Shown here piece after piece: positions 4,309 to 63,151 of a stretch of DNA of 64,000 nt (its first letter is position 1; every line of letters starts with the position of its first letter). Source of the DNA: Deltaproteobacteria bacterium (GTDB lineage: Bacteria; UBA10199; JACPAL01). The stretch covers positions 7,392 through 71,391 of the forward strand of contig JACPAL010000011.1 of assembly GCA_016180855.1 (NCBI GenBank), written 5' to 3'. The position numbers and the translations under genes are program-made. The notes beneath the pieces were generated by a model, which was given only the letters and a program-made list of their open reading frames with translations, had not been told where the DNA came from and did no database searches.

Positions 4309-5343
4309 TTAGGCGATCTGTTGCTGTGTGACACAATGCACCCCCCCAAAACCGCGGACGAGATCCTTCGAGGGGATCTTGGCGATCCTCCTCCCGGGAA
4401 AGAAATTTTTCAAGAGCCGAATTGCCTCATCATCCCTCGGGCTGTCGAAAGAGGGAAGAAGGACGACACCATTCCCAATATAGAAATTGGCGTAGGAGGC
4501 CGGCAGCAGACCGCTATCTGACTCAATAGGGGAGGGGGTTGGCAGGGGGATGACGGTCAGAGGACGCCCCTCTTCGCTCTTCATCTCTTGCAGGGTGGCA
4601 TAGTTCTCTCTGAGCAGCTCGTAGTTTGGGGCTTGCGGATCGTTTTCAAGCGGGGCGACGATCGTTGTTGGGTTCACGAATCGGACCAGGTTATCGATGT
4701 GGCCGTCCGTATCATCACCGGAAGGAGTCCCGGCAGGAAGCCAGAGGATGTTGTCGACTCCTAGAAAACTTTTAAGAATTTTTTCGATCTGCCCTTTTTT
4801 GAGATTCGGGTTTCTTTTGGGATGAAGCAGGCAGGATTCTGTTGTGATTAAGGTTCCGCACCCGTTGGTTTCGATCGATCCCCCCTCCAGAACGATGCCG
4901 GGCCGGAAAAAGGGAAGGGGGACCATTTTTTCGGCAATCCGCGAGGAGACGAGCGCATCCTCGTCCCAAGGGGGCCATTTTTCACCCCACGAATTGAAGA
5001 TCCAGCCAATAAGACCAACCTCGGAACCTTTTTTGATAAAAGTCGGTCCTGTATCCCGGAGCCAGCAATCGTTTGTCGGTATCTCATGGAGCCGGACTCT
5101 ACGAAAATTGATATCCGCCTTTTCCAACCTCTCCTGGACCTCCTTTTTCATGGAGGCGTCGTTAACGAGCAGCTGAACGGCCTCGTCGGTATGAAGTGCC
5201 TTGATCATCTGAATCCAGATTGAGGGGACGAACTTCTGGCGTCCCTGCCAGGTCTCGGCATTGTGCGGCCAAGCGAGCCAAGTGGCAGCGTGGGGTTCCC
5301 ATTCGGCAGGCATGTGAAAACATTGGTCTACGGTTGTTAGCAT
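4309..5343 (-). CDS. aguA: agmatine deiminase
   Basis: 344 aa. FHMPAEWEPHAATWLAWPH N-terminus and C-terminal catalytic-Cys context GGVHCVTQQQ, as in the agmatine deiminase / PAD_porph family. Confidence 0.9.
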   Translation of the reverse strand: MLTTVDQCFHMPAEWEPHAATWLAWPHNAETWQGRQKFVPSIWIQMIKALHTDEAVQLLVNDASMKKEVQERLEKADINFRRVRLHEIPTNDCWLRDTGPTFIKKGSEVGLIGWIFNSWGEKWPPWDEDALVSSRIAEKMVPLPFFRPGIVLEGGSIETNGCGTLITTESCLLHPKRNPNLKKGQIEKILKSFLGVDNILWLPAGTPSGDDTDGHIDNLVRFVNPTTIVAPLENDPQAPNYELLRENYATLQEMKSEEGRPLTVIPLPTPSPIESDSGLLPASYANFYIGNGVVLLPSFDSPRDDEAIRLLKNFFPGRRIAKIPSKDLVRGFGGVHCVTQQQIA

Positions 5344-5384
5344 CTCTTCCTCACATAACGCCCCCTTCCACTGTTTTCACGAGA

Positions 5385-5428
5385 CTCACTATCCCCCTCT
5401 TACATTAAGAGGGGGGGAGGGGGGTGAG
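5385..5428 (-). repeat. C-run/G-run palindromic element, short form, intergenic copy (A)
   Basis: Sequence is CTCACTAT-CCCCCTCT(5393-5400)-TACATTA-AGAGGGGG(5408-5415)-GGAGGGGGGTGAG. This gives an 8-bp stem with a 7-nt loop. The CTCACCCCCC box reads on the minus strand. Lies between the aguB stop and the aguA start. Confidence 0.7.
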
Positions 5429-5436
5429 TTATGCAT

Positions 5437-6315
5437 TTAACATTCCTTTAAGAAGGGCCAATCCTTGCGGACCTCGTTAATCCTTGAGAGGTCACATTCG
5501 GTAGTGACAACCTCTTCCTTCTCGGGGCTTCCCTTTACTAAAACCCTTCCCATGGGATCCACAACAAATGAACTCCCCCAGAATTCAATGTGGTCTTCCT
5601 TGCCAACCCGATTCGTTGCAGCGATAAAGACGCCATTGGCAATCGCATGACCCCTTTGGATCGTGATCCAGGCGTCCAATTCATCTTCCCCCTCACCCCC
5701 GACCCCCCTCCCGCGTGGTGGAGAGGGGAGGGAATAACCAATAGCTGTAGGATAAAAAATGATCTGTGCCCCTGCCTTGGCCAACGCCCGTGCCCCCTCA
5801 GGGAACCACTGATCGTAACAGACCTGGAGGCCGATTCGGCCATAAGGCGACTCAAAAACGGGGGTGCCGGTATCACCGGGTGAAAAATAGAACGATTCCC
5901 CATAGTAGTTTTTAAGATCATTCGGGATGTGGATCTTTCGGTACTTTCCGATAAATTGGCCGTCCGTATTAAACAAAACGGCGGTGTTGAAATACCCCTC
6001 TCCTGATTTCTCAAAGAGTGAACCAACTAGGACGATTTTATGGCGTTTTGCGAGGGAGGAGAGGGCCTCGGAGGTTGGCCCAGGGATCGCCTCCGCGAGC
6101 TTGAAATGGGCCCGGTTTTCCCTCTGGCAGAAATATTCGGTTCGAAACAGCTCCTGAAGAGAGACAATCTGGGCCCCTCTTTGGACCGCCTCCCCAATCC
6201 CCTGGGCCGCTTTTTTGAGGTTTTCCTCGGGGTAGGGGGAGCAGGGGTGTTGGACGAGGCCAACGATCACCCTTTGCCCGCCTGCCTCGTTGTTTTTGGA
6301 GGTCTTGTTTCTCAT
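5437..6315 (-). CDS. aguB: N-carbamoylputrescine amidase (nitrilase/CN-hydrolase superfamily)
   Basis: 292 aa. Catalytic Cys context GLQVCYDQWFPE and FYPTAIG. Adjacent to aguA and near speA. Confidence 0.88.
   Translation of the reverse strand: MRNKTSKNNEAGGQRVIVGLVQHPCSPYPEENLKKAAQGIGEAVQRGAQIVSLQELFRTEYFCQRENRAHFKLAEAIPGPTSEALSSLAKRHKIVLVGSLFEKSGEGYFNTAVLFNTDGQFIGKYRKIHIPNDLKNYYGESFYFSPGDTGTPVFESPYGRIGLQVCYDQWFPEGARALAKAGAQIIFYPTAIGYSLPSPPRGRGVGGEGEDELDAWITIQRGHAIANGVFIAATNRVGKEDHIEFWGSSFVVDPMGRVLVKGSPEKEEVVTTECDLSRINEVRKDWPFLKEC
5688..5732 (+). repeat. C-run/G-run element, degenerate copy (B) inside the aguB CDS
   Basis: CCCCCTCACCCCC-GA-CCCCCCTCCCGCGTGGTGGAGAGGGGAGGG. Only a 6-bp CCCTCC/GGAGGG stem pairs cleanly. 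Translated on the minus strand as PSPPRGRGVGGEGE. Confidence 0.55.
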
Positions 6316-12832: not shown

Positions 12833-14034
12833 TACATCGCCTCCGGTTTGTACCCGGCTCCTTCTATTCTTGCGAGAATCGACCCGATATGCCTCTTCCC
12901 CTTTGTCTCCAGTGTAACCTTGACCTGCGTGCAGTTGATCGGGCCGGAGTAGAAGGCGCGGTCATGCTCAACTTCAAGGACATTCGCCCCCTCTTCCTTG
13001 ATAATATTCAGAAGGGCCGCCAACTGTCCCGGTACATCGGGGATAAGAACGACAATACGTGCGATCCTTCCTGTTTGAGCCAGTCCGCGATTTAAAATCC
13101 GAGCTATCTGGGTAAAATCGATGTTGCCGCCGCTTAAAAGCAGGACCGTATTCTTTCCCTTCTCCCCCGCCACCCCTTTCTGAACGGCAGCCAGCGTAGT
13201 TGCCGCAGCCCCCTCCACAACCGCCTTGGAACGATCCATGAGGGAAAGCACGGCTTGGGCGATTTCATCGTCATCGACTTGAACCATCCGGTCGACATAT
13301 TTTTGGATGTATTCCAGGCAGAGTTTCCCCGGCTGATTCACCCGTATCCCGTCCGCAAAAGTGGTTGAGTGGTCAAGATGAACCAGACTTTTTTTCTGAA
13401 ACGACAAAACGGCCGCATTCGCTCCGCTCGCCTGAACACCGGTAATTTTTATCTTCGGATTCGATTCCTTGAGTACCATTGAAACACCCGAGATGAGCCC
13501 TCCGCCACCCACCGGGACAACTACTTCGTCGACGGAAGGGAGCTGTCTTAAGATCTCCAGGCCGACAACGCCCTGGCCCGCAATGATCGTCTCGTCATCA
13601 AAGGCCGGGATGAAGGTAAGCCCACGTTCCTTCGAGAGGGAGAGTGCGCAGTCAAGACTCTCTTCGAAAGACTCTCCCCTCTCAAGCACCTCGGCTCCAT
13701 AAGAACGGGTGTTTTCGAGCTTAACGAGGGGGGCTCCATTCGGCATGACAATCAGTGCCGGAATTCCAACCAACTTGGCTGCCAAGGCAACTCCTTGAGC
13801 ATGGTTTCCCATCGAGGCGGCAACGACCCCCCTTTTTCTCTCCTCTCCGGAGAGTGATAGAATTTTGTTCAGGGCTCCCCTGATTTTGAAGGATCCGGTC
13901 CTCTGCAGGGTCTCCAGTTTTGAATAAAGGACGACCCCGCGACAGTCGAGTTCTGACGATCGTTCGAGCGGCGTGACAAAGTGGTAATCCTTAAGTCTCT
14001 CCTCCACCGCCTGAATCTCTTTTCGTTGCAACAT
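12832..14034 (-). CDS. ilvA: threonine ammonia-lyase (threonine dehydratase)-like PLP enzyme with C-terminal ACT-like domain
   Basis: 400 aa. PLP-Lys context GSFKIRGA, plus GNHAQG and GGGGLISG. 1-nt TGATG/TAATG coupling to carA and carB on either side. Confidence 0.8.
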
Positions 14035-15167
14035 CAGATTCGATTCTCCTTCATGAGGTTGATAAATCTTTCAAAGAGATAATGGGCATCATGCGGCCCC
14101 GGTGACGCCTCAGGATGGTATTGGACGGAAAAAACCGGCAGGTCGGTCAGTCGCATCCCTTCCACTGTCTTGTCGTTTAAATTGATATGGGTCAGTTCGG
14201 CCTTACCCTTCAGTGAATCGGTGTCGACTGCAAAACCGTGGTTTTGTGCGGTAATCTCCACCTTTCTTGTCGTGAGGTCCATAACAGGCTGATTCCCACC
14301 GTGATGACCGAACTTGAGCTTGTAGGTCTTCCCCCCAAGGGCGAGTCCCAATAGCTGGTGCCCCAGGCAGATTCCAAAGAGGGGAACTTTCCCCAGGAGT
14401 GATCGGATTGTTTTAACGGCGTAGGTGACCGGCTCCGGATCGCCCGGTCCGTTGGAGAGAAAGACCCCGTCCGGTCTCTTTTTGAGGACCTCTTCTGCTG
14501 GCGTGGAGGCAGGGACAACGGTGACATGGCATCCGGCATCAACGAGATTTCTGAGGATGTTCTGCTTGATGCCGAAGTCGTAGGCGATGACATGTATCCC
14601 CCCCTCACCCCCCCTTAAACGGGGGGAGAGACTCCACACCCCCTTTGTCCACCGATACGGCCTCTTACAGGTCACCTCTTTCACGAGGTCCCGACCAACC
14701 ATTTTGGGAGCCAACCGGACCTCTCTCAAAAGTTTTTTTGTATTGAGTTCTTTTGTGGAAATAATCCCCATTTTGGAACCGTAGTCCCGCAGATGTCTCG
14801 TCAGTTTTCTCGTATCGATCCCTTCAATCGCAAGAATCTTATTCTTCTTGAGATAAGATCCCAACTCCTCTCTTGCCCGGAAGTTTGACGGGACCGGGTT
14901 ATAGTGCCGAACGACAAACCCTTCAACAAAGGGATGTGAGGACTCGACATCCTCCGTATTGACCCCGTAATTACCGATCTCCGGATAGGTCATGACGACG
15001 ATCTGGCCCTTATAGGATGGGTCCGTCAGAATCTCCTGGTAGCCGGTCATGCTCGTGTTGAAAACGATCTCGCCAATCGCCTCACCTGCATGACCGAAGG
15101 AACGTCCCTCAAAAACGAGACCATCTTCCAATACAAGCAGGCTCCTAAACTTTCCCATTTGAGGCAT
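14034..15167 (-). CDS. carA: carbamoyl-phosphate synthase small (glutaminase) subunit
   Basis: GATase catalytic GICLGHQLL and [12 protein letters not shown]. The ORF opens at TTG 15188, but GGGAGGAGAGG precedes the ATG at 15167 ([16 protein letters not shown]). Confidence 0.95.
14598..14630 (+). repeat. C-run/G-run element, short form (C) inside the carA CDS
   Basis: CCCCCCCTCACCCCCCC-TTAAAC-GGGGGGAGAG, a 6-bp G:C stem with a 6-nt loop. Translated on the minus strand as [10 protein letters not shown] in the inter-domain linker just before HVIAYDFG. Confidence 0.6.
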
Positions 15168-16443
15168 AAACGACCTCTCCTCCCACAATCGTATATCTCA
15201 CCTTTCCCTTTAGCTTCCAGCCGTTAAAGGGACAGTTTCTTGCCTTTGACTTAAATCTGGAACTATCAATAACAACATCCACCTCCGGGTCAAAAAGCGT
15301 GATATCCGCATCTGCGGAGCCGGGGGTGAGATTCCCCTTGTTCTTCTCCTGCAGGATTCGGGCTGGTCCACGACTCAACTTCTCAAGCAAGAGGGGAAGT
15401 GCCTTCTTCTTCCCCATCTCTTTTAGAAGGAGGGAGAGACAGACCGGCAGGCAGGTTTCAAGACCGACGATTCCATTCGCTGCCCTGACAAACTCAACCT
15501 CCTTCTCGAAAGGGGCGTGGGGGGCATGATCTGTGGCAATCGCATCGATTGTGCCGTTCAGTAATCCCCTGACAAGCGCCTTTTGATCTGCTTCAGAGCG
15601 GAGTGGCGGGCGGACCTTCATAAAGCGATGATAATCCCTGACAGACTCATCGGTCAGGGTGAGATGATGGGGCGTTACCTCGCAGGTCACACGAACACCG
15701 CGCTTTTTGGCGGCCGTAACGAGTTCCAGACCGACAGCCGTTGTCAGATGAGCAATATGAAGTTTGGCCCCCGTGAGTTCTGCGAGCGCAATATCTCGGG
15801 CTACCATTAATTCTTCAGCGGCATTGGGTGAACCCGGGAGCCCCAACTCCGTTGCGACAACCCCTTCATTAATGGAGGCCTCTCCCGAAAGCGACTCATC
15901 TTCACAGTGGGTAACGACCAGCAGGTTAAATCCAGCGGCGTATTGCAGCGCCTTCCTCATCAGGGCACTGTTCATCACTGTCTTTCCATCATCTGAAATT
16001 CCGACAATACCGGCCTCCGCCATCTGACCGATTTCAGAGAGCACCTTCCCTTCGAGCCCTTTCGAAATTGCCCCAAGCGGAAAGAGATTCACCCTTCCCT
16101 CTTCGCGTGCCTTGTTACGAATATACTCCGTGATAACCGCATTATCATTGACTGGCTGTGTATTGGCCATGCAGACGACGGAACTGAACCCTCCGGCGGC
16201 GGCCGCTTCGGTCCCGGTTCGGATCGTCTCCTTATATTCATAGCCTGGTTCCCGAAGATGGGTGTGAAGATCAATAAATCCGGGTGATACAATCAAACCA
16301 CTTGCATCAATCGTTCGGTCAGCCTTCGTTTTAATGTTTTGGCTTATCGTCTTGACCTTGCCGTCCCGGATCAGAAGGTCAAAACGTCCCTCTCTCTTAT
16401 TGGCAGGATCTATTAAATAACCATTTTTAATGAGGAGATTCAT
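15145..16443 (-). CDS. pyrC: dihydroorotase
   Basis: [10 protein letters not shown] and DHAPH metal-binding motifs. The ATG at 16443 forms an ATGA overlap with the pyrB stop ([13 protein letters not shown]). The ORF track extends to 16464. Confidence 0.92.
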
Positions 16444-24818: not shown

Positions 24819-25592
24819 ATGCGGCACCGTATGAAGCTCGGTGCCGTCAGCTACCTCAATGCACTTCCGCTTGTTCATTATCTCGCAGAGAGACCGCGTC
24901 TGGCCCCTCCTGCCGCCCTCGACAGGTTACTCCGAATCGGTGAAGTTGAGCTTGCCACGGCGCCCGTTGTAACACTTTGCGAAAATCCTTCCTGGAAGGT
25001 TGTTCCGGGGATCGCAATCGCGACCCGGTCAACGGCCAAGAGTGTCCGGCTGATTTTCAAAAAACAGGGAATAACTCTCGGAGATCTTCGCTCTATTTCC
25101 CTCGATCTGGAATCAAAAACCTCCAATCTCCTCCTCAAGGTTCTCCTGCATTACAAGTACAGACGAAGGCTTGAGGATATTCACTTTTATTATCCCCTTC
25201 CCTCTTCCGATGCCGACGCTGCCCTGTTCATTGGTGATAAGGCACTTAAGGAGGAATATCGCTCACTGGAAGGGCTTGATCTGGGTGGAGAATGGACCTC
25301 CTGGACAGGACTCCCGTTTGTCTTTGCCGCCTGGATCGGATCTGCTCCGGAGATTTCGGAAAAACAGGTCCAAATCTTGAGAGAGGCACGTGATCGGGCC
25401 CTCACAAATCTTGGGGAACTTGCCAAACAACAGTCCGTTCTCCCGGAGCTGGAGGCAAAACGATACCTTTCCGAAAATATTTCCTATGAATTTGAAGGGG
25501 CTGAGATTGAGGGGCTTCAGCGGTTTTGTGCCTATGCCCACGAATTGGGCTTAATCCAGAATGACTTTCAACTCTCTTTTTACCTTAAGTGA
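24819..25592 (+). CDS. mqnA: chorismate dehydratase MqnA (futalosine pathway)
   Basis: KLGAVSYLNALPLVHYL N-terminus and ~250-aa length, as in the MqnA/MqnD (VitK2_biosynth) family. The alternative ATG at 24831 lies in a hairpin loop. Confidence 0.8.
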   Translation: MRHRMKLGAVSYLNALPLVHYLAERPRLAPPAALDRLLRIGEVELATAPVVTLCENPSWKVVPGIAIATRSTAKSVRLIFKKQGITLGDLRSISLDLESKTSNLLLKVLLHYKYRRRLEDIHFYYPLPSSDADAALFIGDKALKEEYRSLEGLDLGGEWTSWTGLPFVFAAWIGSAPEISEKQVQILREARDRALTNLGELAKQQSVLPELEAKRYLSENISYEFEGAEIEGLQRFCAYAHELGLIQNDFQLSFYLK

Positions 25593-26859
25593 AAAACAGC
25601 AGATCCCTCTCGAGGCGGTTCTCAAGTCGGACCTGCTGAGACTTGGGGTCTCATTTTCCCGAGAGGCCCTTAAAACATCCCAGGATCAAAAACCGAAATC
25701 GTATTTTATCTTTTCCTTTGATCGAGTTTCTCAAAAAGAGCTTTCTGAGATGGAAAAAAGGGGGGCCCCGGAAGAGATCGCCTTGGTTGGAGGGCCGTAT
25801 AATTTGAAGAGAACGATTGTTTCTGTCAGGCTAAATCCAAACTCGCCATATCGAATTGAGGCCTCACCCCCTCCACTCCCCCTCTCCTTAGTAAGGAGAG
25901 GGGGACAGGGGGAGAGATATGAGAAAATCTCTGATATCATTCTCCCAACATCTCCCTCCTACTACAAAACCGCTCTTCAATCGGGCAAACCGGTGGCCGA
26001 CATTGCCCCGACGATTGAATGGGGGTATCTGATCTATCTGACCACCTTTCGTCTCTGCCAATACTGGGGCGAAAAGGAGGAGTGCCAGTTTTGCGACATC
26101 AACAACAATTACCGTCAGCAAAAAGGGGAGCGCTCCTACACCTCGATCAAGGAGCCTGATGAGGTTGTTGAGGCGCTGGCTATTATACAAAAAATGGATA
26201 CAGACGGAATCAGTCAGGCCTACACCGTTTCCGGAGGCGCTATTACCAAAGATCTGTACGGTCTTCGCGAGGCGGAATTTTATGCCCGGTATGCCCAGGT
26301 AATCGAAAAAAATTTTCCGGGACGCTGGATCGGTAAGGCGAATGTCCAGGCATTGCCGGAGGAAGAGGTAAAGATCCTAAAAAAAGCGGGCTACCAAATT
26401 TATCACCCAAACTACGAGGTATGGGATAAAGAGCTTTTCAAAAGACTCTGCCCGGGCAAGGAAAAACTCATTGGGCAGGAGGAATGGATTCATCGCATTC
26501 TGTCAGCGGCCGAGATTTTTGGGGCCCCCCATGTGATCCCTAATTTTGTGGCAGGGATCGAGATGTCGAAACCGTACGGCTTTCAAACGGTCGATGAGGC
26601 GGTTGATTCAACGGCTGAAGGGCTCGATTTTTTCATGTCCAAAGGGATTTTACCGCGATTTACCGTTTGGTGCGTCGAACCAAATACAATCCTCTCACAA
26701 ACCAACAACGAACCCCCTCCCCTTGAATATTTCGTGAAACTGCTTCGGGTTTATCGTGAGACCTTCAAACGGTACAGACTCCCCCCCCCTCGTGGCTACG
26801 GTGAACCGGGTCTTGGAAAGGCCGTTTTTTCCGTCAGTCCGTTTATGGATGTGATTTAA
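25561..26859 (+). CDS. radical-SAM-like protein with non-canonical Cys spacing (function unknown)
   Basis: 432 aa. Cys cluster is C-QYWGEKEE-C-QF-C (Cx8Cx2C), followed by a TVSGG motif and TIM-barrel-like alternation. Overlaps the mqnA 3' end by 32 nt. Confidence 0.5.
   Translation: MTFNSLFTLSEKQQIPLEAVLKSDLLRLGVSFSREALKTSQDQKPKSYFIFSFDRVSQKELSEMEKRGAPEEIALVGGPYNLKRTIVSVRLNPNSPYRIEASPPPLPLSLVRRGGQGERYEKISDIILPTSPSYYKTALQSGKPVADIAPTIEWGYLIYLTTFRLCQYWGEKEECQFCDINNNYRQQKGERSYTSIKEPDEVVEALAIIQKMDTDGISQAYTVSGGAITKDLYGLREAEFYARYAQVIEKNFPGRWIGKANVQALPEEEVKILKKAGYQIYHPNYEVWDKELFKRLCPGKEKLIGQEEWIHRILSAAEIFGAPHVIPNFVAGIEMSKPYGFQTVDEAVDSTAEGLDFFMSKGILPRFTVWCVEPNTILSQTNNEPPPLEYFVKLLRVYRETFKRYRLPPPRGYGEPGLGKAVFSVSPFMDVI
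25862..25916 (+). repeat. C-run/G-run element, short form (D), perfect palindrome inside a CDS
   Basis: CCTCACCCCC-TCCACT-CCCCCTCTCCTTA(25878-25890)-G-TAAGGAGAGGGGG(25892-25904)-ACAGGGGGAGAG. The stem is a perfect 13 bp. Translated as SPPPLPLSLVRRGGQGER. Confidence 0.75.
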
Positions 26860-26884
26860 GAAATATTTCTTCCTGAAAATTATT

Positions 26885-27904
26885 TCATTTGATGGGTAAG
26901 GAAGCACGCTTTACCGGCTGAATTCCGACCTTTCTCACCCAATTCAATACCTTTTCGACATTCTGTTCAATCCTGGCACCGGCGAGCTGGGTCACCTGAT
27001 CCTCGAGCGGGATGTCAAAGTCATGGGCCCCTGAAAGGAGTGCCTCGGGTCCCTTGTCATATTGGGTCAAAAAAGAGGCCCGGATAACCGGGATGTTATC
27101 GAGGTAGAGACGGCTGATCGCGAGCGTCCGGAGATAATCATCATTCCCTGTGACACGTCCCCCAAGCGCTGTGTTGTCGGGCTGATAGGTCCATAAAAGA
27201 AAGCTGGAAAATCCACCCGTCCTCTCTTGAAGAGTACGAATCTTTCTCAAATGTTCCACCCGATCCCTTGGTGTTTCGCCAAATCCGATCACCATTGTCG
27301 CTGTCGTCCCAAACCCAAGACGCTGGGCCAGCTCCATTCCATCGAGATATTCCTTCACGGTATATTTTTTGGGTGAAAGTTTTTTGCGCCATTCGTCCGT
27401 GAGAATCTCGGCCCCACCTCCGGGGATCCAACGAAGTCCTGATCCCTTGAGACGTACCAATGTCTCTTCCAAAGAGATCCGGGAGGCACGAGCGATAAAA
27501 ATCACCTCAACAATCGTCGGACCGTAGATTTCAATTGTCTCCCCATATTTTTGCCGAACAGAGTAAAACAGGTCCTCATAGTGATCAACCTTGAGTTTTG
27601 GATTAAATCCCCCTTCCATCGCTACGAGACCGCCACCAACCGATTTTAACTCGTCGATCTTGGAAAAGATCTGCTCTTTTGAGAGGACGTATCCTTCCGG
27701 GTGATTGGGGCGGCGGTAAAAGGCACAGTAACTGCAGTCAGCGACACAAACATTCGTGTAACTGATAATCCGCATGATGATGTAGCTCGCCTGACTGCCC
27801 GGATAATAAAGAGACCGTCTCTTATGGGCCTCGGCCCTTAAGTCCCCCAGATTCTCCTTCCAGAGATCAAGCGCCTCTGCCTCGGTGAGACGTTGTTTTG
27901 TCAT
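26885..27904 (-). CDS. MqnC/MqnE-family radical SAM enzyme (cyclic dehypoxanthinyl futalosine synthase or aminofutalosine synthase)
   Basis: 339 aa. TNVCVADCSYCAFYRR (CxxxCxxC followed by AF) as in the CofH/MqnC/MqnE family. I cannot separate C from E by eye. Confidence 0.8.
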   Translation of the reverse strand: MTKQRLTEAEALDLWKENLGDLRAEAHKRRSLYYPGSQASYIIMRIISYTNVCVADCSYCAFYRRPNHPEGYVLSKEQIFSKIDELKSVGGGLVAMEGGFNPKLKVDHYEDLFYSVRQKYGETIEIYGPTIVEVIFIARASRISLEETLVRLKGSGLRWIPGGGAEILTDEWRKKLSPKKYTVKEYLDGMELAQRLGFGTTATMVIGFGETPRDRVEHLRKIRTLQERTGGFSSFLLWTYQPDNTALGGRVTGNDDYLRTLAISRLYLDNIPVIRASFLTQYDKGPEALLSGAHDFDIPLEDQVTQLAGARIEQNVEKVLNWVRKVGIQPVKRASLPIK

Positions 27905-27942
27905 CGCAACCTTTCTGAAATAGGGCCGAGAATCACGGTGTT

Positions 27943-29481
27943 ATGAGTCGTGATCTATCCTTAAAAGAGACCGAGAATCAAGCCGCCCATCGCTTTTATT
28001 TTGATCTGGCCTCTACAGCCGGCAGCTTTCTCCTGCCCGGTCTCTTACCTCTCTACACGCTGGCCGACTCCAGCTTTCGGGTCGCCTCGGAGGGATCAAC
28101 CTTCTCCGAAGAGTCTCCACGACTCACCTTTGGGCTCTTAACCACCCTCCCCTCCTATGCCTCCGGCACTTTTTTATCGGCACTTTACAGCAAAAGAATT
28201 TTTAACGGGTTAAAACGACTGATCGGCACACAAGGTTTTCAAACCCTCTATCGCTTATCGACTCATCAGTGGTTCAGCAGGACCCTCCTGCTTTGCTCAT
28301 TTTTAGGCTCGGCCCTCCATTTTCGGGAGAACCTTGAGGTATATGAAAATGGAGAGATCGACGGAGCGACCGTTGCCTACCGTACCGCTAGCAGTCTGTT
28401 GATGTTAGGAGGCGGCTTTCTCTTTTCTTGTCATCGTCCGAATCCCTCCGACCATCGTACGGTCCATCCGAAAAGAGACGAGATTACGATTGATCTCGCA
28501 AATCCCCGAAAAACAACTTACCGGGGAGGTATTGGGTCAAAGTTAAAAGGCCTCCGGCGGCTTCTTTTTTACAGCGCACCACGCACCCTTGCTGGCTATC
28601 ATATAAAAACGGGGGATTTTCAGCGCGCCTCAACGGAACAGTTGGGTCTTGATAGCTGGATCCTCCGCCAAACCGGTGTCCATAGGGTCGTGATTCGAGG
28701 AGGTAAACATCTTAAGGGGGCAACGGCTGCAGGAGCCCCCGCAATGACCCTCCAACTGACCCATTATGATCTGCGAGACTGGGCCCTGACCGATTTTACC
28801 TCACGCCATTTGGGAAGAGATCAGGGACAATTTATGAGGGCGAGTCTTGGAAAATTGGGCCCGCTCAGTATGCTGACTTCCGCCGAGATGGGGAGCCACC
28901 TTGTTCTTATCGATCGACACAATATCTCAATGGGGGTCTTTCAGATGCAAAGGGGATTCAGGCCGTCCTATCCCGCTCGGAACGGAAATATTCATTATGT
29001 CATCTATGGGCCACAGACGAGGACGACAGGAAAAAATTATATGAAAGAAAGAGGTGGTTTACTGGTTCAACGGAATGAAGCGGGTGAACTGGAGCCAATA
29101 GTTGTCAGCTCATTTGGAGAGGATGATTTTAAACGTCTCTGGAGGCCTCATACGACTCCGTTTGAATTTGCACTTACCCATGAAAGGGCTTTTGGGGATA
29201 ACCTGCATATCATCCCTTCCGTTATCATCCCCAGTGATTTTCAGAACGGGGCCTATCGGACATTGACCGTCGAATATTTTGAGCCGATCCCGGTCAAACG
29301 TTATCTTGAAATGATGAGAGACAAGACTCATCGCCTGTCCCTCAAGGAGGAAGCCGAATTGATGAGAAACGAGATGGTTGACTGGATGATCAAAAATCTC
29401 GTGAGGGACGGTTATTTCTCGAGCTACGCGCATGCCTACTATCCGATTCAGCAATCGGGTGTCCTAAGGAGCCACGCCTGA
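27943..29481 (+). CDS. hypothetical protein (orphan inside the menaquinone cluster)
   Basis: 512-aa ORF. Hydrophobic segments in the first ~170 aa. No motif recognised. Only 38 nt separate it from the divergent radical SAM gene. Confidence 0.55.
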   Translation: MSRDLSLKETENQAAHRFYFDLASTAGSFLLPGLLPLYTLADSSFRVASEGSTFSEESPRLTFGLLTTLPSYASGTFLSALYSKRIFNGLKRLIGTQGFQTLYRLSTHQWFSRTLLLCSFLGSALHFRENLEVYENGEIDGATVAYRTASSLLMLGGGFLFSCHRPNPSDHRTVHPKRDEITIDLANPRKTTYRGGIGSKLKGLRRLLFYSAPRTLAGYHIKTGDFQRASTEQLGLDSWILRQTGVHRVVIRGGKHLKGATAAGAPAMTLQLTHYDLRDWALTDFTSRHLGRDQGQFMRASLGKLGPLSMLTSAEMGSHLVLIDRHNISMGVFQMQRGFRPSYPARNGNIHYVIYGPQTRTTGKNYMKERGGLLVQRNEAGELEPIVVSSFGEDDFKRLWRPHTTPFEFALTHERAFGDNLHIIPSVIIPSDFQNGAYRTLTVEYFEPIPVKRYLEMMRDKTHRLSLKEEAELMRNEMVDWMIKNLVRDGYFSSYAHAYYPIQQSGVLRSHA

Positions 29482-29528
29482 CAATCTCTCCTGTTGCGAT
29501 TCTTTTCTGACTTTCTTATCCTCCCGAC

Positions 29529-30728
29529 ATGCTTCTTGCTGCCCGTTGGCTTTTGACCGGGGTGACGCCCCCCATCGAACAGGGTGCCATCCTCATAGAA
29601 GACGGTATCATTCGGGATATCGGCACCCGCCAGTGGTTTGCCAAAAAGGACATCTCGGAGGTTATCGATCTGGGAGAAACGATCCTCGTTCCAGGCCTTG
29701 TGAATGCCCATGCCCATCTGGAACATTCGGCACTAAAATCCCCCCAACCCCCCGGGGGGCAAAGGGGGATTTCTTTTACGGCTTGGGTCCGTACCCTCCA
29801 GGAAAAATCATCTCAAATCTCTCCATCAGAGAATGAGAAGGCAATTAAATATGCGATTGATGAACTAATTCGTGGAGGAACAACAACTCTTGTTGATCAT
29901 CGATCCCCGGACTGCCCCCCCATAGAAACGCCGTTTCGTGAGATGCTCTTTTTGGAACTGATTGGACCGTCCAAGTCAAAGGCCGAGGAATCGCGTCGAA
30001 ACGGCCTAAAATGGCTGGAAGAGAATGATGACCCGGAGCGCCCCTGCCACCTGACACCCCACTCGCTCTATTCCGTCCATCCGGATATTCTACAAGAGGC
30101 ATTCTCAGCGGGGACGACTCTCTCGTTGCATTTACTAGAGTCCGATGAGGAGGAGCAGTTTTTTCGTTCTCGCCAGGGCCCCCTCTTTGAGCTAGTTCGG
30201 AGTCGAGGGGGATCGCCACTTCGGGCCGAATCACCTGTTGCCTGGATCGAAGAACACCGCTCCAATGACACAAACATCCTCCTTATTCATGGAAATTATT
30301 TAAAGGAGGATGAAATTCGCCGGTTGAAGGGGCAAAATGCCTTTGTTATACACTGCCCCGGAAGTCACCGGTTTTTTGGGCCGAGAGCGTTTCCCTACGA
30401 GTCCTACATAAGGTGCGGGATTCGAATTGGACTTGGGACGGATAGTCTTGCCTCCAACGAATCGTTAAACATGCTCCGGCAGATGAAGCTCATGAAAGAG
30501 ACGACCCATCTGGGTGAAGAGGATATCTTGAGAATGGCAACCTTGAATGGAGCAATGGCAATTGGGGTGGAAAATGAGATCGGCACGCTCGAGGTTGGCA
30601 AGAAGGCGGATATTGTAGGCGTCCCACTCTTGAATCAGAAGGTTGATCCCTATGAAGCACTCCTCCTGCCCGATCAAGTCAGTTTTTCTATGGTGAGAGG
30701 GAGGGTTATTTTTTGTACCCATCCTTAA
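29529..30728 (+). CDS. amidohydrolase-superfamily deaminase (candidate aminodeoxyfutalosine deaminase)
   Basis: 399 aa. VNAHAHLEHS (HxH), HCPGSH, GTDSLASN. The cluster context suggests the futalosine-branch deaminase. Confidence 0.7.
   Translation: MLLAARWLLTGVTPPIEQGAILIEDGIIRDIGTRQWFAKKDISEVIDLGETILVPGLVNAHAHLEHSALKSPQPPGGQRGISFTAWVRTLQEKSSQISPSENEKAIKYAIDELIRGGTTTLVDHRSPDCPPIETPFREMLFLELIGPSKSKAEESRRNGLKWLEENDDPERPCHLTPHSLYSVHPDILQEAFSAGTTLSLHLLESDEEEQFFRSRQGPLFELVRSRGGSPLRAESPVAWIEEHRSNDTNILLIHGNYLKEDEIRRLKGQNAFVIHCPGSHRFFGPRAFPYESYIRCGIRIGLGTDSLASNESLNMLRQMKLMKETTHLGEEDILRMATLNGAMAIGVENEIGTLEVGKKADIVGVPLLNQKVDPYEALLLPDQVSFSMVRGRVIFCTHP
29736..29772. repeat. C-run/G-run near-palindrome (E) inside the amidohydrolase CDS
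   Basis: AAATCCCCC-CAA-CCCCCCGGGGGG-CAA-AGGGGGATTT: two stems, 9 bp and 6 bp, with an internal loop. Translated as KSPQPPGGQRGI just after the HxH motif. Lacks the CTCACCCC box. Confidence 0.55.
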
Positions 30729-32182
30729 CGCATTTTGTCCAATTTCTTGAGGAACGCGGCGAACTCTGCCGGCTCAGAGAACCGGTACGGGCCGAATTGG
30801 AAATTACGGAAATTACGGATCGCACCACCAAGGCCGGTGGCCCTGCCCTTCTGTTTGAGAATGTTATCAAGACGAATGGGGAAAGATCCAAATTTCCACT
30901 CCTGATTAATACCTATGGGACCTGGAAGCGAATGGCCTGGGCCTTAGGGGTTGAAGAGATCGAGGAGATTGCTCGAGAGATCGAGGAGATTCTGAAGAGC
31001 CAACCCCCTTCCGGTCTCTGGGACAAGCTCAAGATGCTCCCGAAGTTGGCCAAATTTGGCAGTTTTCTTCCGAAGGGAGTCTCTCAGGGGGTCTGTCAAG
31101 AGGTCGTCCTTTCCGGGCCGGATCTATCAATCCTTCCCTACCTCAAATGTTGGCCCGGTGATGGGGGACCGTATATCACCTTTCCCCTTGTGATCACCAA
31201 AGATCCTGACACGGGCATCCGTAACGTTGGCACCTATCGGATGCAGGTCTTTGACAAAAAAACAACCGGCATGCATTGGCAGGTCCACAAAACGGGTGCC
31301 AGGCACGCGCAGAGATATTGGGAATTAAAGAAGAAAATTCCTGTTGCGGTCTGTCTGGGGGGAGATCCGGCGTATGGCTATTCCGCAACAGCGCCCCTAC
31401 CGGACGGTGTCGATGAACTGATCTTGGCCGGCTTCATACGGAAAAAAGGGGTAGAGCTTGTCCGCTGTAAAACAATCGATATGGAGGTACCCGCCGACTG
31501 CGATTTTGTCATTGAGGGATACGTCGATCCGATGGAACCATTGGTTAAAGAGGGCCCATTTGGCGACCATACCGGCTACTACTCGCTCGCTGACAACTAT
31601 CCGCTCTTTCATGTCACGGCGATCACCCACCGCAAGGAGCCCATTTACTCCACGACCATCGTCGGTCCACCGATTCAGGAGGACGGTTTTCTTGGAAAGG
31701 CAAGTGAGAGAATCTTCATGCCCTTAATCCGGATGAATTTTCCGGAGATCCGCGATCTTTGTGTCCCGATCGAGACCTGCTTTCACAATCTCGCCATTGT
31801 TTCGATCAAAAAACAATACCCGGGTCATGCCAAGAAGATCATGCACTCGATCTGGGGAACGGGTCAGATGATGTTTTCAAAATGTATCATTGTTGTTGAT
31901 GAGGATGTGAATGTCCAAAATCTCACAGAGGTGGCCTGGCGTGTTTCCAATAACATCGATGCCAAACGCGATATCCTGTTTGCTGAGGGGCCGGTCGACG
32001 CCTTGGACCATGCCGCTCCCCAGTTTGCCTATGGATCAAAAATGGGGATCGACGCGACCCGAAAGTGGAGGGAAGAGGGATTTGAACGGGACTGGCCCGA
32101 GGTGCTTAAGATGAGGGAGGATGTAAAAAAACGAGTCAATGAGATATGGGAGAACTTAGAGATTATAAAGAGGGGGAAGTGA
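30713..32182 (+). CDS. UbiD-family decarboxylase (menaquinone-type, SCO4490-like)
   Basis: 489 aa. N-terminus FVQFLEERGELCRLREPV and GPFGDHTGYYS motif. TTG start. Followed by ubiE/ubiX/ubiA homologues. Confidence 0.9.
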   Translation: MYPSLTHFVQFLEERGELCRLREPVRAELEITEITDRTTKAGGPALLFENVIKTNGERSKFPLLINTYGTWKRMAWALGVEEIEEIAREIEEILKSQPPSGLWDKLKMLPKLAKFGSFLPKGVSQGVCQEVVLSGPDLSILPYLKCWPGDGGPYITFPLVITKDPDTGIRNVGTYRMQVFDKKTTGMHWQVHKTGARHAQRYWELKKKIPVAVCLGGDPAYGYSATAPLPDGVDELILAGFIRKKGVELVRCKTIDMEVPADCDFVIEGYVDPMEPLVKEGPFGDHTGYYSLADNYPLFHVTAITHRKEPIYSTTIVGPPIQEDGFLGKASERIFMPLIRMNFPEIRDLCVPIETCFHNLAIVSIKKQYPGHAKKIMHSIWGTGQMMFSKCIIVVDEDVNVQNLTEVAWRVSNNIDAKRDILFAEGPVDALDHAAPQFAYGSKMGIDATRKWREEGFERDWPEVLKMREDVKKRVNEIWENLEIIKRGK

Positions 32183-32880
32183 TTTCCGTGAAGATCGATA
32201 AGGGGGAGATACAGGGCCTCTTTTCCTCCATTGCCCCTCAATATGACCTCCTCAACACTGTCTTAAGTTTCGGCACTGACCGTCTTTGGCGTAAATGTGG
32301 GGTCTCCTTTCTAAAAGAGAGCCATCAGGTTCTTGATCTTTGCGCCGGCACATTGGCTCTCACGAGGGAACTCTTAAAGATCAATCCTTCTGTCTCCATC
32401 ACAGCGACTGATTTTTCTGAACCGATGCTTCGGGAGGGACAGAAAAAATTACAACGGGATGAACACCAAAGAGTCTCTCTCGAATGCTCTGATTTTTTTA
32501 AATTTGTTCGACCCCCTGCTACCTTTGATGCGGCGATGTGTGCCTATGGGTTCAGAAATTTAGAGGATAATACCAAGGCCCTCAAAAGGATCCATCACCT
32601 TTTAAAACCAGGAGGTCGTCTCTTGATTCTCGAATTCTTTCGGCCTGACAGATGGTATACCTGGATCTTTCATTATACCTATGCGCAGTTCCTTATTCCC
32701 CTGATCGGTTGGCTTGTCTCCCGGCATCAAGGGGCCTACAAGCACCTTCGAGACTCGGTCAGGGGCTTTTACACCCTTGACCAATATATCCAGTTGTTGA
32801 GAAAAACAGGCTTTGAAATAAAGAAGGCAAAGAGGCTGACGGGAGGGATCTCAGGATTGATTGTTGGGGAGAAAATATGA
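32179..32880 (+). CDS. menG: demethylmenaquinone / ubiquinone C-methyltransferase (UbiE/MenG family)
   Basis: FSSIAPQYDLLNTVLSFGTDRLWRK, VLDLCAGT, LKPGGRLLILEF. GTG 32179 overlaps the UbiD-like TGA (GTGA) and follows GAGGGGG. The ORF track opens at 32146. Confidence 0.88.
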   Translation: MISVKIDKGEIQGLFSSIAPQYDLLNTVLSFGTDRLWRKCGVSFLKESHQVLDLCAGTLALTRELLKINPSVSITATDFSEPMLREGQKKLQRDEHQRVSLECSDFFKFVRPPATFDAAMCAYGFRNLEDNTKALKRIHHLLKPGGRLLILEFFRPDRWYTWIFHYTYAQFLIPLIGWLVSRHQGAYKHLRDSVRGFYTLDQYIQLLRKTGFEIKKAKRLTGGISGLIVGEKI

Positions 32881-33440
32881 AAATCGTTATCGGAATCAGC
32901 GGTGCGAGCGGCGCCATTTACGCAAAGAGTCTGCTCGATTTTCTAAAAGGAACTCCTCATGAGGTTTATGTGACCGCCTCGGAGAATGCCATCGAGATAG
33001 GGCGTGAGGAGTGCGGTGTTGATTATCGTGAGTATGATTTTCGCTACTATGGCTACCGCGATTTCTCGGCCCCTTTTGCGAGTGGCTCTGCGAAGTTTGA
33101 TCAACTGGTCGTGATTCCATGCAGCATGGGAATCCTGGGGAGGATTGCCCATGGCTATTCGGACGATCTTCTCTCACGAACAGCCGATGTCTTCTTTAAG
33201 GAAAGAAAAAAGGTGATCCTTGTACCGAGGGAGACCCCTTTGAGTCTTATCCATATTGAGAACATGAAACTCGTGACACTCTCGGGGGCCGTTGTTCTCC
33301 CGGCTATTCCCTCCTTCTACAGCAAGCCTCAAACGATCCAGCAGGCGGTTGATACGGTCATCGCACGGGTACTCGACCATATGGGGATCGAAAATGATTT
33401 GAGGAAGAGATGGGGATCACCCCCTCACCCACAAAGATGA
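32877..33440 (+). CDS. ubiX: flavin prenyltransferase UbiX
   Basis: MKIVIGISGASGAIYA and PCSMGILGRIAHG. ATGA overlap with menG. The last ~7 codons and the stop are encoded by repeat copy G. Confidence 0.92.
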   Translation: MKIVIGISGASGAIYAKSLLDFLKGTPHEVYVTASENAIEIGREECGVDYREYDFRYYGYRDFSAPFASGSAKFDQLVVIPCSMGILGRIAHGYSDDLLSRTADVFFKERKKVILVPRETPLSLIHIENMKLVTLSGAVVLPAIPSFYSKPQTIQQAVDTVIARVLDHMGIENDLRKRWGSPPHPQR

Positions 33441-33478
33441 CAACCATAACAAATCCCCTCTCCCACGGGTGGAGAGGG
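33421..33478 (+). repeat. C-run/G-run element, long form (G)
   Basis: CCCCTCACCC(33421-30)-24 nt-CCCCTCTCCC(33455-64)-ACGGGT-GGAGAGGG(33471-78). The spacer carries AAGATGA, which supplies the ubiX stop and the ubiA-like start. Confidence 0.75.
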
Positions 33479-34321
33479 CTAATTAACATATTTTCATTGA
33501 TCAAATTCTCCCACACAATTTTTGCCCTCCCGTTTGCCTTATCCTCGATGCTTGTCGCAGCAAGCGGTATTCCGCCCCTTCGAACCATTCTTTTCATCAT
33601 AATTGGTATGGTCGCCGGACGGACGGCCGGAATCGCCTTTAATCGCTATCTGGACGCCGAAATCGATGCTAAAAATCCCCGCACGGCCCTGCGCGAGATC
33701 CCGCGCGGGGTCATTTCAAAAAGATTTGCCTTAATCCTTTCTTTCACCTCTTCAGCAATGCTTCTCCTGGTCGCCTTTCAACTGAACTCTCTCTGTTTTT
33801 ATCTTTCGCCACTCGCCCTTTTTCTCCTCTACTTCTATTCCTTCACCAAGCGATTGACAGACTGGTCCCACCTTTTCGTCGGTCTTGTTCTTGGTATCAC
33901 CCCGATCGCCTCCTGGATTGCCGTTACAGGCTCATGGAGCTGGATTCCTTTTATTTTGGGCCTTGGGGTGACGTTCTGGGTCGCTGGATTTGATATTATT
34001 TATGCAACCCAGGATGAGGAGTTTGATCGAAGGGAGGGACTGCACTCACTCGTTGTTCGGTTGGGGCTCCCCAAGGCGCTTTGGATCGCCCGTCTCTTTC
34101 ACGGATTGACCCTTCTCTCTTTCATCGCTTTTGGTTATCTCGTACTTGATACGACCGCTCTCCCCTATTGGTTAGCCCTCTCCCTCTGTGGATTTTTGCT
34201 CTTCTATGAGCACCGTCTCGTCAAACCGACGGATCTTTCCCATGTCAACGCCGCCTTTTTCAACATGAATGGCACTATCGCAATTATTTTTTTTGCAGGG
34301 GTTGCGGTGTCGATATTGTAG
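33437..34321 (+). CDS. UbiA-family aromatic prenyltransferase (menaquinone-type, SCO4491-like)
   Basis: NRYLDAEIDAKNPRT and DIIYATQDEEFD Asp-rich motifs, with ~8 TM helices. The ORF opens at 33410. The ATG at 33437 overlaps the ubiX TGA. Confidence 0.85.
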   Translation: MTTITNPLSHGWRGLINIFSLIKFSHTIFALPFALSSMLVAASGIPPLRTILFIIIGMVAGRTAGIAFNRYLDAEIDAKNPRTALREIPRGVISKRFALILSFTSSAMLLLVAFQLNSLCFYLSPLALFLLYFYSFTKRLTDWSHLFVGLVLGITPIASWIAVTGSWSWIPFILGLGVTFWVAGFDIIYATQDEEFDRREGLHSLVVRLGLPKALWIARLFHGLTLLSFIAFGYLVLDTTALPYWLALSLCGFLLFYEHRLVKPTDLSHVNAAFFNMNGTIAIIFFAGVAVSIL

Positions 34322-34323
34322 CT

Positions 34324-34380
34324 CCCCTCACCCTTAAAGGTGATAACAGGCACATATCCCCTCTCCCCTGCGGGAGAGGG
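34324..34380 (+). repeat. C-run/G-run element, long form (F)
   Basis: CCCCTCACCC(34324-33)-24 nt-CCCCTCTCCC, with a perfect 9-bp stem CCCTCTCCC(34359-67)/GGGAGAGGG(34372-80) and loop CTGC. Starts 3 nt after the ubiA-like stop. Confidence 0.75.
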
Positions 34381-34381
34381 C

Positions 34382-34412
34382 AAAAAAAGAGGCAGGACTA
34401 CTGTCCTGCCTC
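34382..34412 (-). terminator. rho-independent terminator of the minus-strand envelope operon
   Basis: 10-bp stem GAGGCAGGAC(34389-98)/GTCCTGCCTC(34403-12) with loop TACT. On the minus strand it is followed by T7 (A7 at 34382-88). Confidence 0.75.
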
Positions 34413-50729: not shown

Positions 50730-50766
50730 ATGAAGCTCCCCGCGGTCTTGCCGCGGGGAGCTTCAT
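50730..50766. repeat. perfect 16-bp inverted repeat (hairpin) between hutG and hutU
   Basis: ATGAAGCTCCCCGCGG(50730-45)-TCTTG-CCGCGGGGAGCTTCAT(50751-66). No adjacent T-run on either strand. Confidence 0.7.
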
Positions 50767-63069: not shown

Positions 63070-63151
63070 CCCTCACCCACCACTGAAATTATTATAGCCG
63101 TTCCCCTCTCCCGCCCTTCAGCATGGCTCAGGGCAGGCCAAGGGGAGAGGG
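63070..63151 (+). repeat. C-run/G-run element, long form (H)
   Basis: CCCTCACCC(63070-78)-24 nt-CCCCTCTCCC(63103-12)-29-nt loop with inner GCCCT/AGGGC stem-GGGGAGAGGG(63142-51). Spans the ABC ATPase stop and the ligase SD. Confidence 0.7.

Follow-up and report, generated by a model that had tools for sequence, protein, structure and literature searches.

The BoxC/PIT/TM repeats have been known for about thirty years, earlier work on BoxC and PIT reportedly being that of Bachellier and of Hoyne and Maher in 2000, and to our knowledge neither a function nor a mobilising enzyme is known for them; how they spread and why their sequence stays the same are questions that have stood since the 1990s. 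The motif has been reported from E. coli, cyanobacteria and >260 other genomes. In E. coli K-12, the 23 TMECO motifs (formerly BoxC or PIT) have the form CCCTCTCCC-tgt-GGGAGAGGG-CCG/TTA-GGGTGAGGG (Holder et al., 2015, Table 1; PMC4666352). They are defined by a pyrimidine block, a complementary purine block and a third, mirror-related purine block able to bind the purine block antiparallel via G.G-C, A.A-T or T.A-T triads, and the ITxF search definition sets a stem of 6–15 nt with at most one mismatch and loops of 1–6 nt (PMC4666352). A single strand of the motif forms a stable triplex in vitro, none having been detected in vivo; neither promoter nor terminator activity was found for the family, which is associated with local genomic instability and with elevated local rearrangement between strains, and its E. 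coli K-12 copies are reported as always intergenic (Holder et al., 2015; PMC4666352). Palindromic repeats that are translated in-frame are also on record: short G/C-rich repetitive extragenic palindromic sequences (REPs) of the GTAG/CGTC type occur wholly inside the open reading frames (ORFs) of known proteins, accounting for 10–30 residues (Di Nocera et al., 2013; PMC3733652), and Rickettsia palindromic elements (RPEs) measure ~105–146 bp (PMC3184786). Here we analyzed a 64,000-nt stretch of DNA from a Deltaproteobacteria bacterium (contig JACPAL010000011.1; hereafter the window), in which a ~56-nt element at 25862-25917 is a member of the BoxC/PIT/TM intrastrand-triplex repeat family by sequence and architecture and is translated in-frame inside a conserved radical-SAM-type gene.

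The initial annotation of the window had singled out a palindrome at this position. The sequence that it quoted for 25862-25916 is present exactly as given, and coordinates and translation agree with its description of a perfect 27-nt palindromic core (25878-25904; 13-bp arms around a 1-nt loop) that lies in-frame in a 432-aa ORF (25561-26859, + strand; codon 101 begins at 25861), upstream of a Cys cluster. A repeat search extends the inverted repeat imperfectly to 21-nt arms with 86% complementarity (25870-25912), and 100 dinucleotide-preserving shuffles yielded no palindrome match with three or fewer mismatches. The 71-nt stretch around the palindrome folds as one long hairpin, at -40.2 kcal/mol as RNA (z = -4.0) and at -20.9 kcal/mol as DNA (z = -4.3), with 0 of 200 shuffles equally stable, the ViennaRNA folding used here predicting the Watson-Crick hairpin only. 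At gathering thresholds, Rfam matched no family anywhere in the 64-kb window. An intrinsic terminator or attenuator was ruled out, as no T-run follows the hairpin on either strand and a terminator scan does not flag it.

The conserved triplex third-strand blocks that flank the 27-nt palindrome, and hence its BoxC/PIT/TM identity, had gone unrecognised. With them the element consists of four blocks, CCTCACCCCC / CCCCCTCTCC / GGAGAGGGGG / GGGGGAGAG, of which the palindrome makes up only the Watson-Crick core. Its minus strand is CCCCCTCTCC-ttactaa-GGAGAGGGGG-agtgga-GGGGGTGAGG, and in other genomes carrying the same element (see below) CCCCTCTCC-ttattaa-GGAGAGGGG-aCCGa-GGGGTGAGG; the minus-strand blocks of the window and of these carriers match the published consensus in sequence and order, CCCTCTCC - loop - GGAGAGGG - short loop - GGGGTGAGG. 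Four carriers (L001, L003, L162 and L165) have the CCG loop 2 of E. coli TMECO type B. The in-gene copy has blocks of 9–13 nt, a loop 1 of 1–7 nt and a loop 2 of 3 nt (plus strand) or 6 nt (minus strand), in keeping with the size definition of the family. A triplex finder written for the three-block architecture, with at most one mismatched triad allowed per block, recovered the motif from every intact carrier and, at 25861-25919, from both strands; it returned none in 30 Markov shuffles of the window, as against the in-gene copy and six others in the real sequence. The element thus shares with the described family its three-block triplex order, consensus sequence, stem and loop sizes and multiple dispersed copies, as well as G/C-rich conserved stems, variable loops and an association with locally variable DNA.

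The third block of the plus strand, GGGGGAGAG, is an exact mirror of GGAGAGGGGG, as the purine-motif rule has it. The copy is 'double', in that a third-strand block stands on each side, and by its sequence either strand could fold into a hairpin plus third strand. Read instead as an outer stem, CCTCACCCCC and GGGGGAGAG would hold an A:A mismatch. A synonymous change of the Y1 codon from TCA to TCT would mend the Watson-Crick pairing, and it was never seen in any carrier; the Y1 core including this A is invariant in 8 of 8. Each outer block would be the third strand of one of the two DNA strands and not the partner of the other block, which explains why the A:A 'mismatch' is kept in all carriers. 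In several respects the copy differs from those described in E. coli. The E. coli copies are intergenic (a property of those copies and not part of the structural definition), whereas this one is read as part of a conserved enzyme gene; it has a third-strand block on either side; TTA/TAA lengthens its hairpin to a 13-bp perfect palindrome; and it is retained at one orthologous codon position in lineages with ~70% protein identity. The proposed structure also sets it apart from the mirror-repeat polypurine-polypyrimidine tracts that form H-DNA. As in those tracts, G.G-C, A.A-T and T.A-T triads could arise between a purine strand and its mirror repeat, but here this would happen in an intrastrand double fold-back of single-stranded DNA and not in supercoiled duplex. 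Mirror-repeat tracts are reported to be associated with replication stalling and instability.

Having placed the element in a family, we turned to its distribution among homologues of the host protein. Seven other lineages, at ~70% protein identity, carry the same peptide and palindrome at the same codon position (P0001/L161, P0002/L001, P0015/L165, P0013/L002, P0004/L162, P0003/L164 and P0031/L003, the last copy being decayed). Since the same palindrome stands at the same codon in independent NCBI, JGI, ENA and Logan assemblies, an assembly artefact, which the initial annotation had left as a possibility, is excluded in practice. The element is translated as residues 102-119, SPPPLPLSLVRRGGQGER, N-terminal of the cysteines C166/C175/C178. 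The frame used encodes P-L-S-L-V-R-R-G-G-Q-G-E-R, one of the two other frames contains a stop codon, and the codons include rare ones (TTA, 6% of Leu codons; GTA, 6% of Val codons). The carriers share the DNA pattern ACC TCA CCC C-(5-9 nt)-CCC CTC TCC TTA-(G/A/T)-TA AGG AGA GGG G-(2-9 nt)-GGG GAG AGG. Across six lineages, the same codon is used in only 42 of the 243 invariant degenerate amino-acid columns (17%), whereas all 11 codons within the four blocks are identical, most of them for six-fold degenerate Leu, Ser and Arg; the spacers and the loop base vary. The naive probability of such block identity is ~0.17^11, which is indicative only, as the lineages are not independent. Between the window and its closest relative, L161 (92.7% nucleotide identity), there are three differences in the element, one of them in the ACA spacer and none in a block core.

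These data bear on whether the peptide SPxxPLSL(V/I/L)RRGxGER is simply a conserved protein motif, the palindrome being a by-product of codon choice. The peptide does recur in seven other homologues. However, residues with six alternative codons use the same one in every carrier, rare codons included, and relatives with 92–95% identity lack the peptide altogether, so this explanation is effectively refuted at the codon level and we give it almost no credence. The initial annotation had judged the palindrome to go beyond coding constraint, which is right. It had also held that conservation of the peptide in homologues from unrelated genomes would refute an inserted element; the seven lineages literally do conserve it, but they share it as DNA, in identical codons and patchily, and this combination points to a DNA element rather than a conserved protein motif.

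A second possibility is a selected cis-acting mRNA hairpin of the host gene, acting as a translational pause for folding or Fe-S loading, as a stabiliser or as a processing site, with the likeness to a repeat incidental. The predicted RNA hairpin is very stable, as given above, its stems are synonymous-invariant across lineages with diverged flanks while loop and spacers vary, and strong hairpins of other kinds stand at the same position in other lineages, so any hairpin could be what is selected. Against this, the closest relatives of the carriers and ~150 more distant loci have no hairpin, and the same sequence is found intergenically in the window and in a phage contig, with no match in Rfam. 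We sought covariation in the stems among the carriers and found no compensatory change: sequence is conserved and not pairing alone, and with stems invariant in sequence, RNA-structure statistics would be uninformative. Moreover, the outer blocks obey the rules of purine-motif triplexes (mirror symmetry and the kept A:A), and such triplexes do not form in RNA (PMC4666352). We consider a role in the mRNA unlikely.

The part of the protein in which the element lies appears permissive. The host gene has no Pfam match and is assigned to NCBIfam NF045502 'variant_rSAM' (E = 2.9e-48), with a CX8CX2C cluster formed by the three cysteines named above; the family has 2840 matches at E <= 1e-5, including Streptomyces, Acidobacteriota and Gaiellales. 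An AlphaFold2 model built from 39 sequences has a mean pLDDT of 90.8. Foldseek matches ~250 columns, which make up the radical-SAM barrel, to HydE, BioB and LipA, and the N-terminal ~150 residues, element included, form an extra domain outside the radical-SAM core. Within it, residues 108-112 (LSLVR) and 121-127 (EKISDII) are modelled as the two strands of a beta-hairpin and 113-120 (RGGQGERY) as its turn, with pLDDT values of 72–78. The initial annotation had suggested checking whether the segment is a surface loop; in the model it falls in this structurally tolerant, lower-confidence hairpin, and the ORF is intact with all family-invariant residues retained. At ~150 more distant homologous loci (Streptomyces, Acidobacteriota and others), the stretch from IVSVR to PTIEWGY measures 52–57 residues, has the pattern xLxLxxxGxxIAxVxLP and contains no notable hairpin. 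In the window it measures 64 residues, a net gain of 6–7 over the family base state. Where the native hairpin has its first strand and turn, the window has the element: according to model and alignment, the xLxL pattern of that strand comes from the left arm, while the right arm and third block enlarge the turn. An absence of ~18 residues in homologues, as had been proposed, was therefore found only in part. Most homologues do lack the element, but a clean insertion of that size is not what separates them from the window; a plain model of an insertion absent elsewhere proved too simple, given a hypervariable loop, a gain of 6–7 residues and replaced native codons.

The motif is dispersed well beyond this gene. 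Six further triplex-motif copies are present in the window, making seven loci in all, and two of the six are likewise in-frame (Table 1). The in-frame segment of the AguB-like protein is 6–9 residues longer than in the solved homologues 6mg6 and 5h8i. In an alignment with E. coli CarA, the CarA copy falls in the variable linker and adds no net length, so that the repeat there occupies an already existing variable linker. Three of the intergenic copies (33422-33478, 34325-34382 and 63070-63152) form a subfamily in which CCCTCACCC, a 24-nt spacer and a CCCCTCTCC hairpin follow one another; their loop sequences are partly conserved, two of the three spacers being ~60% identical. With a 24-nt second loop as against the published 1–6 nt, they fall outside the family definition and may represent a distinct, longer element. 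The initial annotation had counted seven other sites, which broadly holds as these six copies and one more C-run/G-run hairpin. The latter, AAATCCCCCCAACCCCCCGGGGGGCAAAGGGGGATTT at 29735-29772, is read as KSPQPPGGQRGI in ORF 29529-30728 (+), an amidohydrolase of the mqn cluster, where it closely follows the HxH motif, and the triplex criteria do not flag it. The dispersed C-run/G-run family to which the palindrome had been attributed is real and has intergenic members in the window; the element is neither a recent insertion nor private to this genome, since seven other lineages share it.

Copies in viral sequences were also found. An identical 25-nt variant of the palindrome, CCCCTCTCCTTAATAAGGAGAGGGG, followed by a small GCCC/GGGC hairpin and then by GGGGTGAGG, lies on a putative phage contig (L171; IMG/VR contig IMGVR_UViG_2886672058_000002), where it is intergenic and adjoins an ORF resembling a terminase small subunit. 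The general motif pattern matches at least 120 viral stretches. Among the 168 motifs in those listed, 37 are situated 60 codons or more within frames that run for at least 250 codons without a stop, and all five such frames tested are real proteins: three Mu-type portal proteins (L173, L179 and L210), a TerL (L174) and a Mu F-like protein (L242). In the large terminase L174 the motif interrupts the nuclease domain; the three portal proteins have it in one shared C-terminal region beyond the Portal_Mu domain, and this region may be another hot spot. In-frame translation of the repeat is therefore not unique to the window.

Template switching is an established source of perfect inverted repeats, and this one could have arisen by an in-situ switch (quasi-palindrome correction) within the coding sequence, unrelated to any other repeat; the small net change in length and the left arm sitting at the native xLxL strand would suit it. 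The identical palindrome with its third-strand block in an unrelated phage contig and the near-identical copies elsewhere in the window speak against such an origin, as does a four-block architecture that fits the published family (PMC4666352). The other copies effectively refute it, and we regard it as very improbable.

We next consider how the carriers are related. In neighbour-joining distance trees (loop masked, ~400 columns, 100 bootstraps), carriers were monophyletic in 0 of 100 bootstraps, and a single gain in a monophyletic group was rejected. Two sister pairs joined with 100% bootstrap support combine a carrier with a non-carrier. P0002 and P0034 are 95% identical outside the loop, and the loop of P0034, IDGDLQLHADDLHLSDIQLP, is native-like; P0015 and P0046 are 92% identical outside the loop, and P0046 has a GTAG-type REP there, GTAGGGGCGCA...TGCGCCCCTAC. 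In pairwise DNA alignments the flanks are ~90% identical, whereas the block from ...YR(V/I) to ...(I/L)xLP is wholly different; the 20–30 nt on either side of the replaced block are somewhat more diverged than the remainder of the flanks, and a target-site duplication was sought in these alignments and not found. Taken over all homologues, at least four classes of palindromic element occupy this one codon position. Besides the BoxC/TM element these include GTAG-type REPs, among them a textbook one in P0005/L169, whose contig has further GTAGGGG hairpins at 469-496 and 9215; an in-frame palindrome of ~165 nt in P0019/L170, which is RPE-like or MITE-like in size, lies in a 237-nt stretch that folds at -104 kcal/mol and, judged by protein sequence, is also present in P0007, P0010 and P0014; and a related C-run/G-run hairpin in P0029/L081.

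Such a pattern raises the possibility that the site is an active landing pad, at which hairpin repeats are integrated or swapped by a hairpin-targeting mechanism (a single-strand transposase or template switching at the replication fork), the blocks being recent independent arrivals. Carriers are polyphyletic, with fully supported carrier/non-carrier sister pairs; several element classes share the position; the family consensus seen in unrelated genomes is the same as these blocks; and L002 has a nested insertion of 24 nt at the hairpin apex. REPs are known as insertion targets, and different REPs stand at about the same recB site in two Xanthomonas species (PMC3733652, PMC3184786). On the other hand, the junctions and part of the spacers (GAT, xCxGGy) are common to related carriers, which favours common descent in at least one subclade, and no target-site duplication exists. 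We know of no BoxC/TM transposase and met none here, in a search that was not exhaustive. A landing pad in this strict sense is conceivable, although we lean against it. For the subclade of P0002, P0015 and P0013, junctions held in common and spacers that agree in part speak for an element inherited from one ancestor, which would imply its later replacement in P0034 and P0046; the simplest idea for how a native-like loop came back in P0034 would be recombination with a divergent allele.

The explanation that we prefer, with a probability of roughly 65%, is that a BoxC/TM repeat has been tolerated in-frame in a permissive beta-hairpin that has turned into a turnover hot spot, with no demonstrated role for the gene. 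We saw no evidence for the element serving its host gene, and it behaves as a selfish or structural DNA repeat. Such a repeat would be tolerated because the N-terminal hairpin outside the radical-SAM core accepts almost any in-frame sequence, and a strong hairpin or triplex former, once present, would make the site unstable or attractive to other hairpin elements. Instability or attraction of this kind would account for close relatives carrying the BoxC element, a GTAG REP, the ~165-nt palindrome or a native-like loop. By analogy, the published triplex formation in vitro, lack of promoter or terminator activity and rearrangement between strains would fit turnover at the site. We infer that a hairpin or triplex forms in vivo and that its instability causes the turnover, and the way of arrival is likewise deduced.

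Several points weigh against tolerance in a hot spot. For the E. coli motif, triplex formation in vivo went undetected (PMC4666352). The native-like loop of P0034, nested among carriers, appears hard to derive from a carrier ancestor without recombination. Native codons were replaced for a net gain of just 6–7 residues, so that a simple model in which an element landed here is incomplete. No further copies were found in ~80 kb of flanking DNA of the other carriers (6–15 kb each), so that it is not evident that every carrier genome is rich in the family. Finally, the invariance of the blocks at synonymous sites, with flanks saturated, exceeds what is expected of a neutral passenger. Candidate causes are selection on DNA structure, repeated re-acquisition from a conserved family and gene conversion from other copies; under the first, four interdependent blocks and a reading frame would make a compensated change nearly impossible.

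The same invariance could be read as active maintenance, with a sequence-specific mechanism that acts on hairpin or triplex DNA keeping the element at this codon position or putting it back there, so that the loop is a natural 'cassette site' in which palindromic repeats of different families take each other's place. We hold this to be improbable. Were it so, block invariance would reflect recognition by a BoxC-specific protein, for mobilisation or repair, the gene family would offer a tractable, phylogenetically replicated system for the spread of BoxC/TM repeats, and it could show why E. coli, uncultured groundwater bacteria and phages all have one and the same sequence. Taken together, the copies translated in enzymes, the invariant blocks at one orthologous site and the several repeat classes amount to a natural experiment, with replicates, on the arrival, persistence and replacement of hairpin and triplex repeats.

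The initial annotation had likened the element to the RPEs, reportedly the subject of Ogata et al. in 2000, and as an analogy in principle this holds: both are palindromic, are read in-frame in housekeeping genes, lie in tolerant parts of proteins and affect several genes per genome. Membership does not follow, however, as ~56 nt is well short of ~105–146 bp, sequence family and taxon differ, the triplex architecture is no RPE feature and the net gain here is 6–7 residues. Intragenic REPs resemble the element in being stem-loops translated inside an ORF, and GTAG REPs occupy this very loop in the homologues L169 and L168. Unlike these, 25862-25917 has neither GTAG nor CGTC at either end and does have the third-strand blocks that REPs lack; we know of no RAYT partner for it. 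Both the repeat family and in-frame palindromic repeats were known already, and this is no new kind of system. What is new is the combination: conserved enzymes in which a triplex motif is translated, diverged orthologues whose blocks are invariant and a hot spot for several repeat families. Our literature search on in-frame BoxC or triplex motifs, which did not extend to the original BoxC papers, returned Holder et al. (2015) and general triplex reviews and no description of this combination. The same motif can evidently be translated inside essential-type enzymes (the menaquinone-cluster radical-SAM protein, CarA and the AguB-like protein) and, elsewhere, in phage portal proteins and terminases. 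Peptides such as SPxPLSLxRRGxGE and PSPxGRGxGGEG are repeat-derived and should not be annotated as protein motifs.

Table 1. Parts of the element, further copies in the window and repeats of other lineages (positions of the window unless a locus is named).
Feature	Position	Strand	Remarks
Block Y1, CCTCACCCCC	25862..25871	+	Minus strand GGGGGTGAGG, canonical BoxC/TM third strand; pairs with R1 on minus strand (finder)
Variable spacer TCCACT	25872..25877	+	Loop 2 of minus-strand motif; CTCGGT, CCAGGC, CCCGGC, CTTTCT in other lineages; region reads CCG on minus strand in several carriers
Left arm CCCCCTCTCCTTA (block Y2)	25878..25890	+	Encodes P-L-S-L; CCC CTC TCC TTA identical in all intact carriers
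Loop nucleotide G	25891..25891	+	G/A/T among carriers, giving Val/Ile/Leu
Right arm TAAGGAGAGGGGG (block R1, purine strand)	25892..25904	+	Encodes (V)-R-R-G; AGG AGA GGG identical in intact carriers
Variable spacer ACA	25905..25907	+	Loop 2 of plus-strand motif; elsewhere ACG, GAT, GATGAA, GCT, AGAGTTGAG
Block R2, GGGGGAGAG(A)	25908..25917	+	Mirror repeat of R1; purine-motif third strand using A.A-T triad; GGG GAG invariant in intact carriers
Intergenic copy CCCCCTCTTA-cat-TAAGAGGGGG-ga-GGGGGGTGAG	5392..5428	+	Triplex finder
In-frame copy (SLPSPPRGRGVGGEGE), AguB-like carbon-nitrogen hydrolase	5691..5728	-	ORF 5437-6315 (-); finder
In-frame copy, CarA inter-domain linker	14596..14626	-	ORF 14034-15188 (-); finder
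Intergenic copy, 24-nt second loop	33422..33478	-	Plus strand CCCTCACCC-N24-CCCCTCTCC-loop-GGAGAGGG
Intergenic copy, 24-nt-loop subfamily	34325..34382	-	Begins 3 nt past stop codon of ORF 33410-34321
Intergenic copy, 24-nt-loop subfamily, long hairpin loop	63070..63152	-	Finder
GTAG REP TGTAGGGGCAACCGGCCGGTCGCCCCTACA, P0005/L169	L169, 10298-10330		Same loop
GTAG-type REPs GTAGGGGC...GCCCCTAC	L168, about 5316-5367		Same loop, in-frame as VGxxGxxPLQL; also L169, L083, L084
In-frame palindrome ~165 nt, P0019/L170	L170, 2148-2480		Same loop; adds ~55 residues (...FFSEPAVPSPQAPATSRLRSRP...GLRELPQK...)
C-run/G-run hairpin, P0029/L081			Same loop
Phage copy CCCCTCTCCTTAATAAGGAGAGGGG	L171, 3863-3910		Intergenic

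The start of the host gene (25561..25592) overlaps the end of the MqnA ORF (24819-25592) by 32 nt, and an MqnC-like gene (26885-27904) lies downstream on the opposite strand. The relative L169 shares the order DnaK-MqnA-rSAM-MqnC, followed by amidohydrolase, UbiD, UbiE, UbiX and UbiA genes, and from this conserved synteny the host gene belongs to the futalosine/menaquinone cluster. The cluster common to the window (24819-34321) and L169 (9241-18701) comprises MqnA, the variant radical-SAM protein, the MqnC-like protein on the opposite strand and the amidohydrolase; it also holds an unannotated protein of 512–530 aa with no Pfam match. In two relatives, an RVT_1 reverse-transcriptase gene (~476 aa), possibly from a group II intron or a retron, lies ~2.6 kb upstream of the radical-SAM gene (L165, 3228-4658; L168, 980-2413).

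Further features of the window were noted. At 50730-50766, between ORFs 48996-50630 (-) and 50778-51950 (-), 16-bp arms ATGAAGCTCCCCGCGG / CCGCGGGGAGCTTCAT around a 5-nt loop make a perfect inverted repeat that is unrelated in sequence to the BoxC family. The GC skew is slightly negative over most of the window, and all eight occurrences of CCTCACCC are on the plus strand, a strong orientation bias of the repeat family in these 64 kb, where 2.85 would be expected over both strands.

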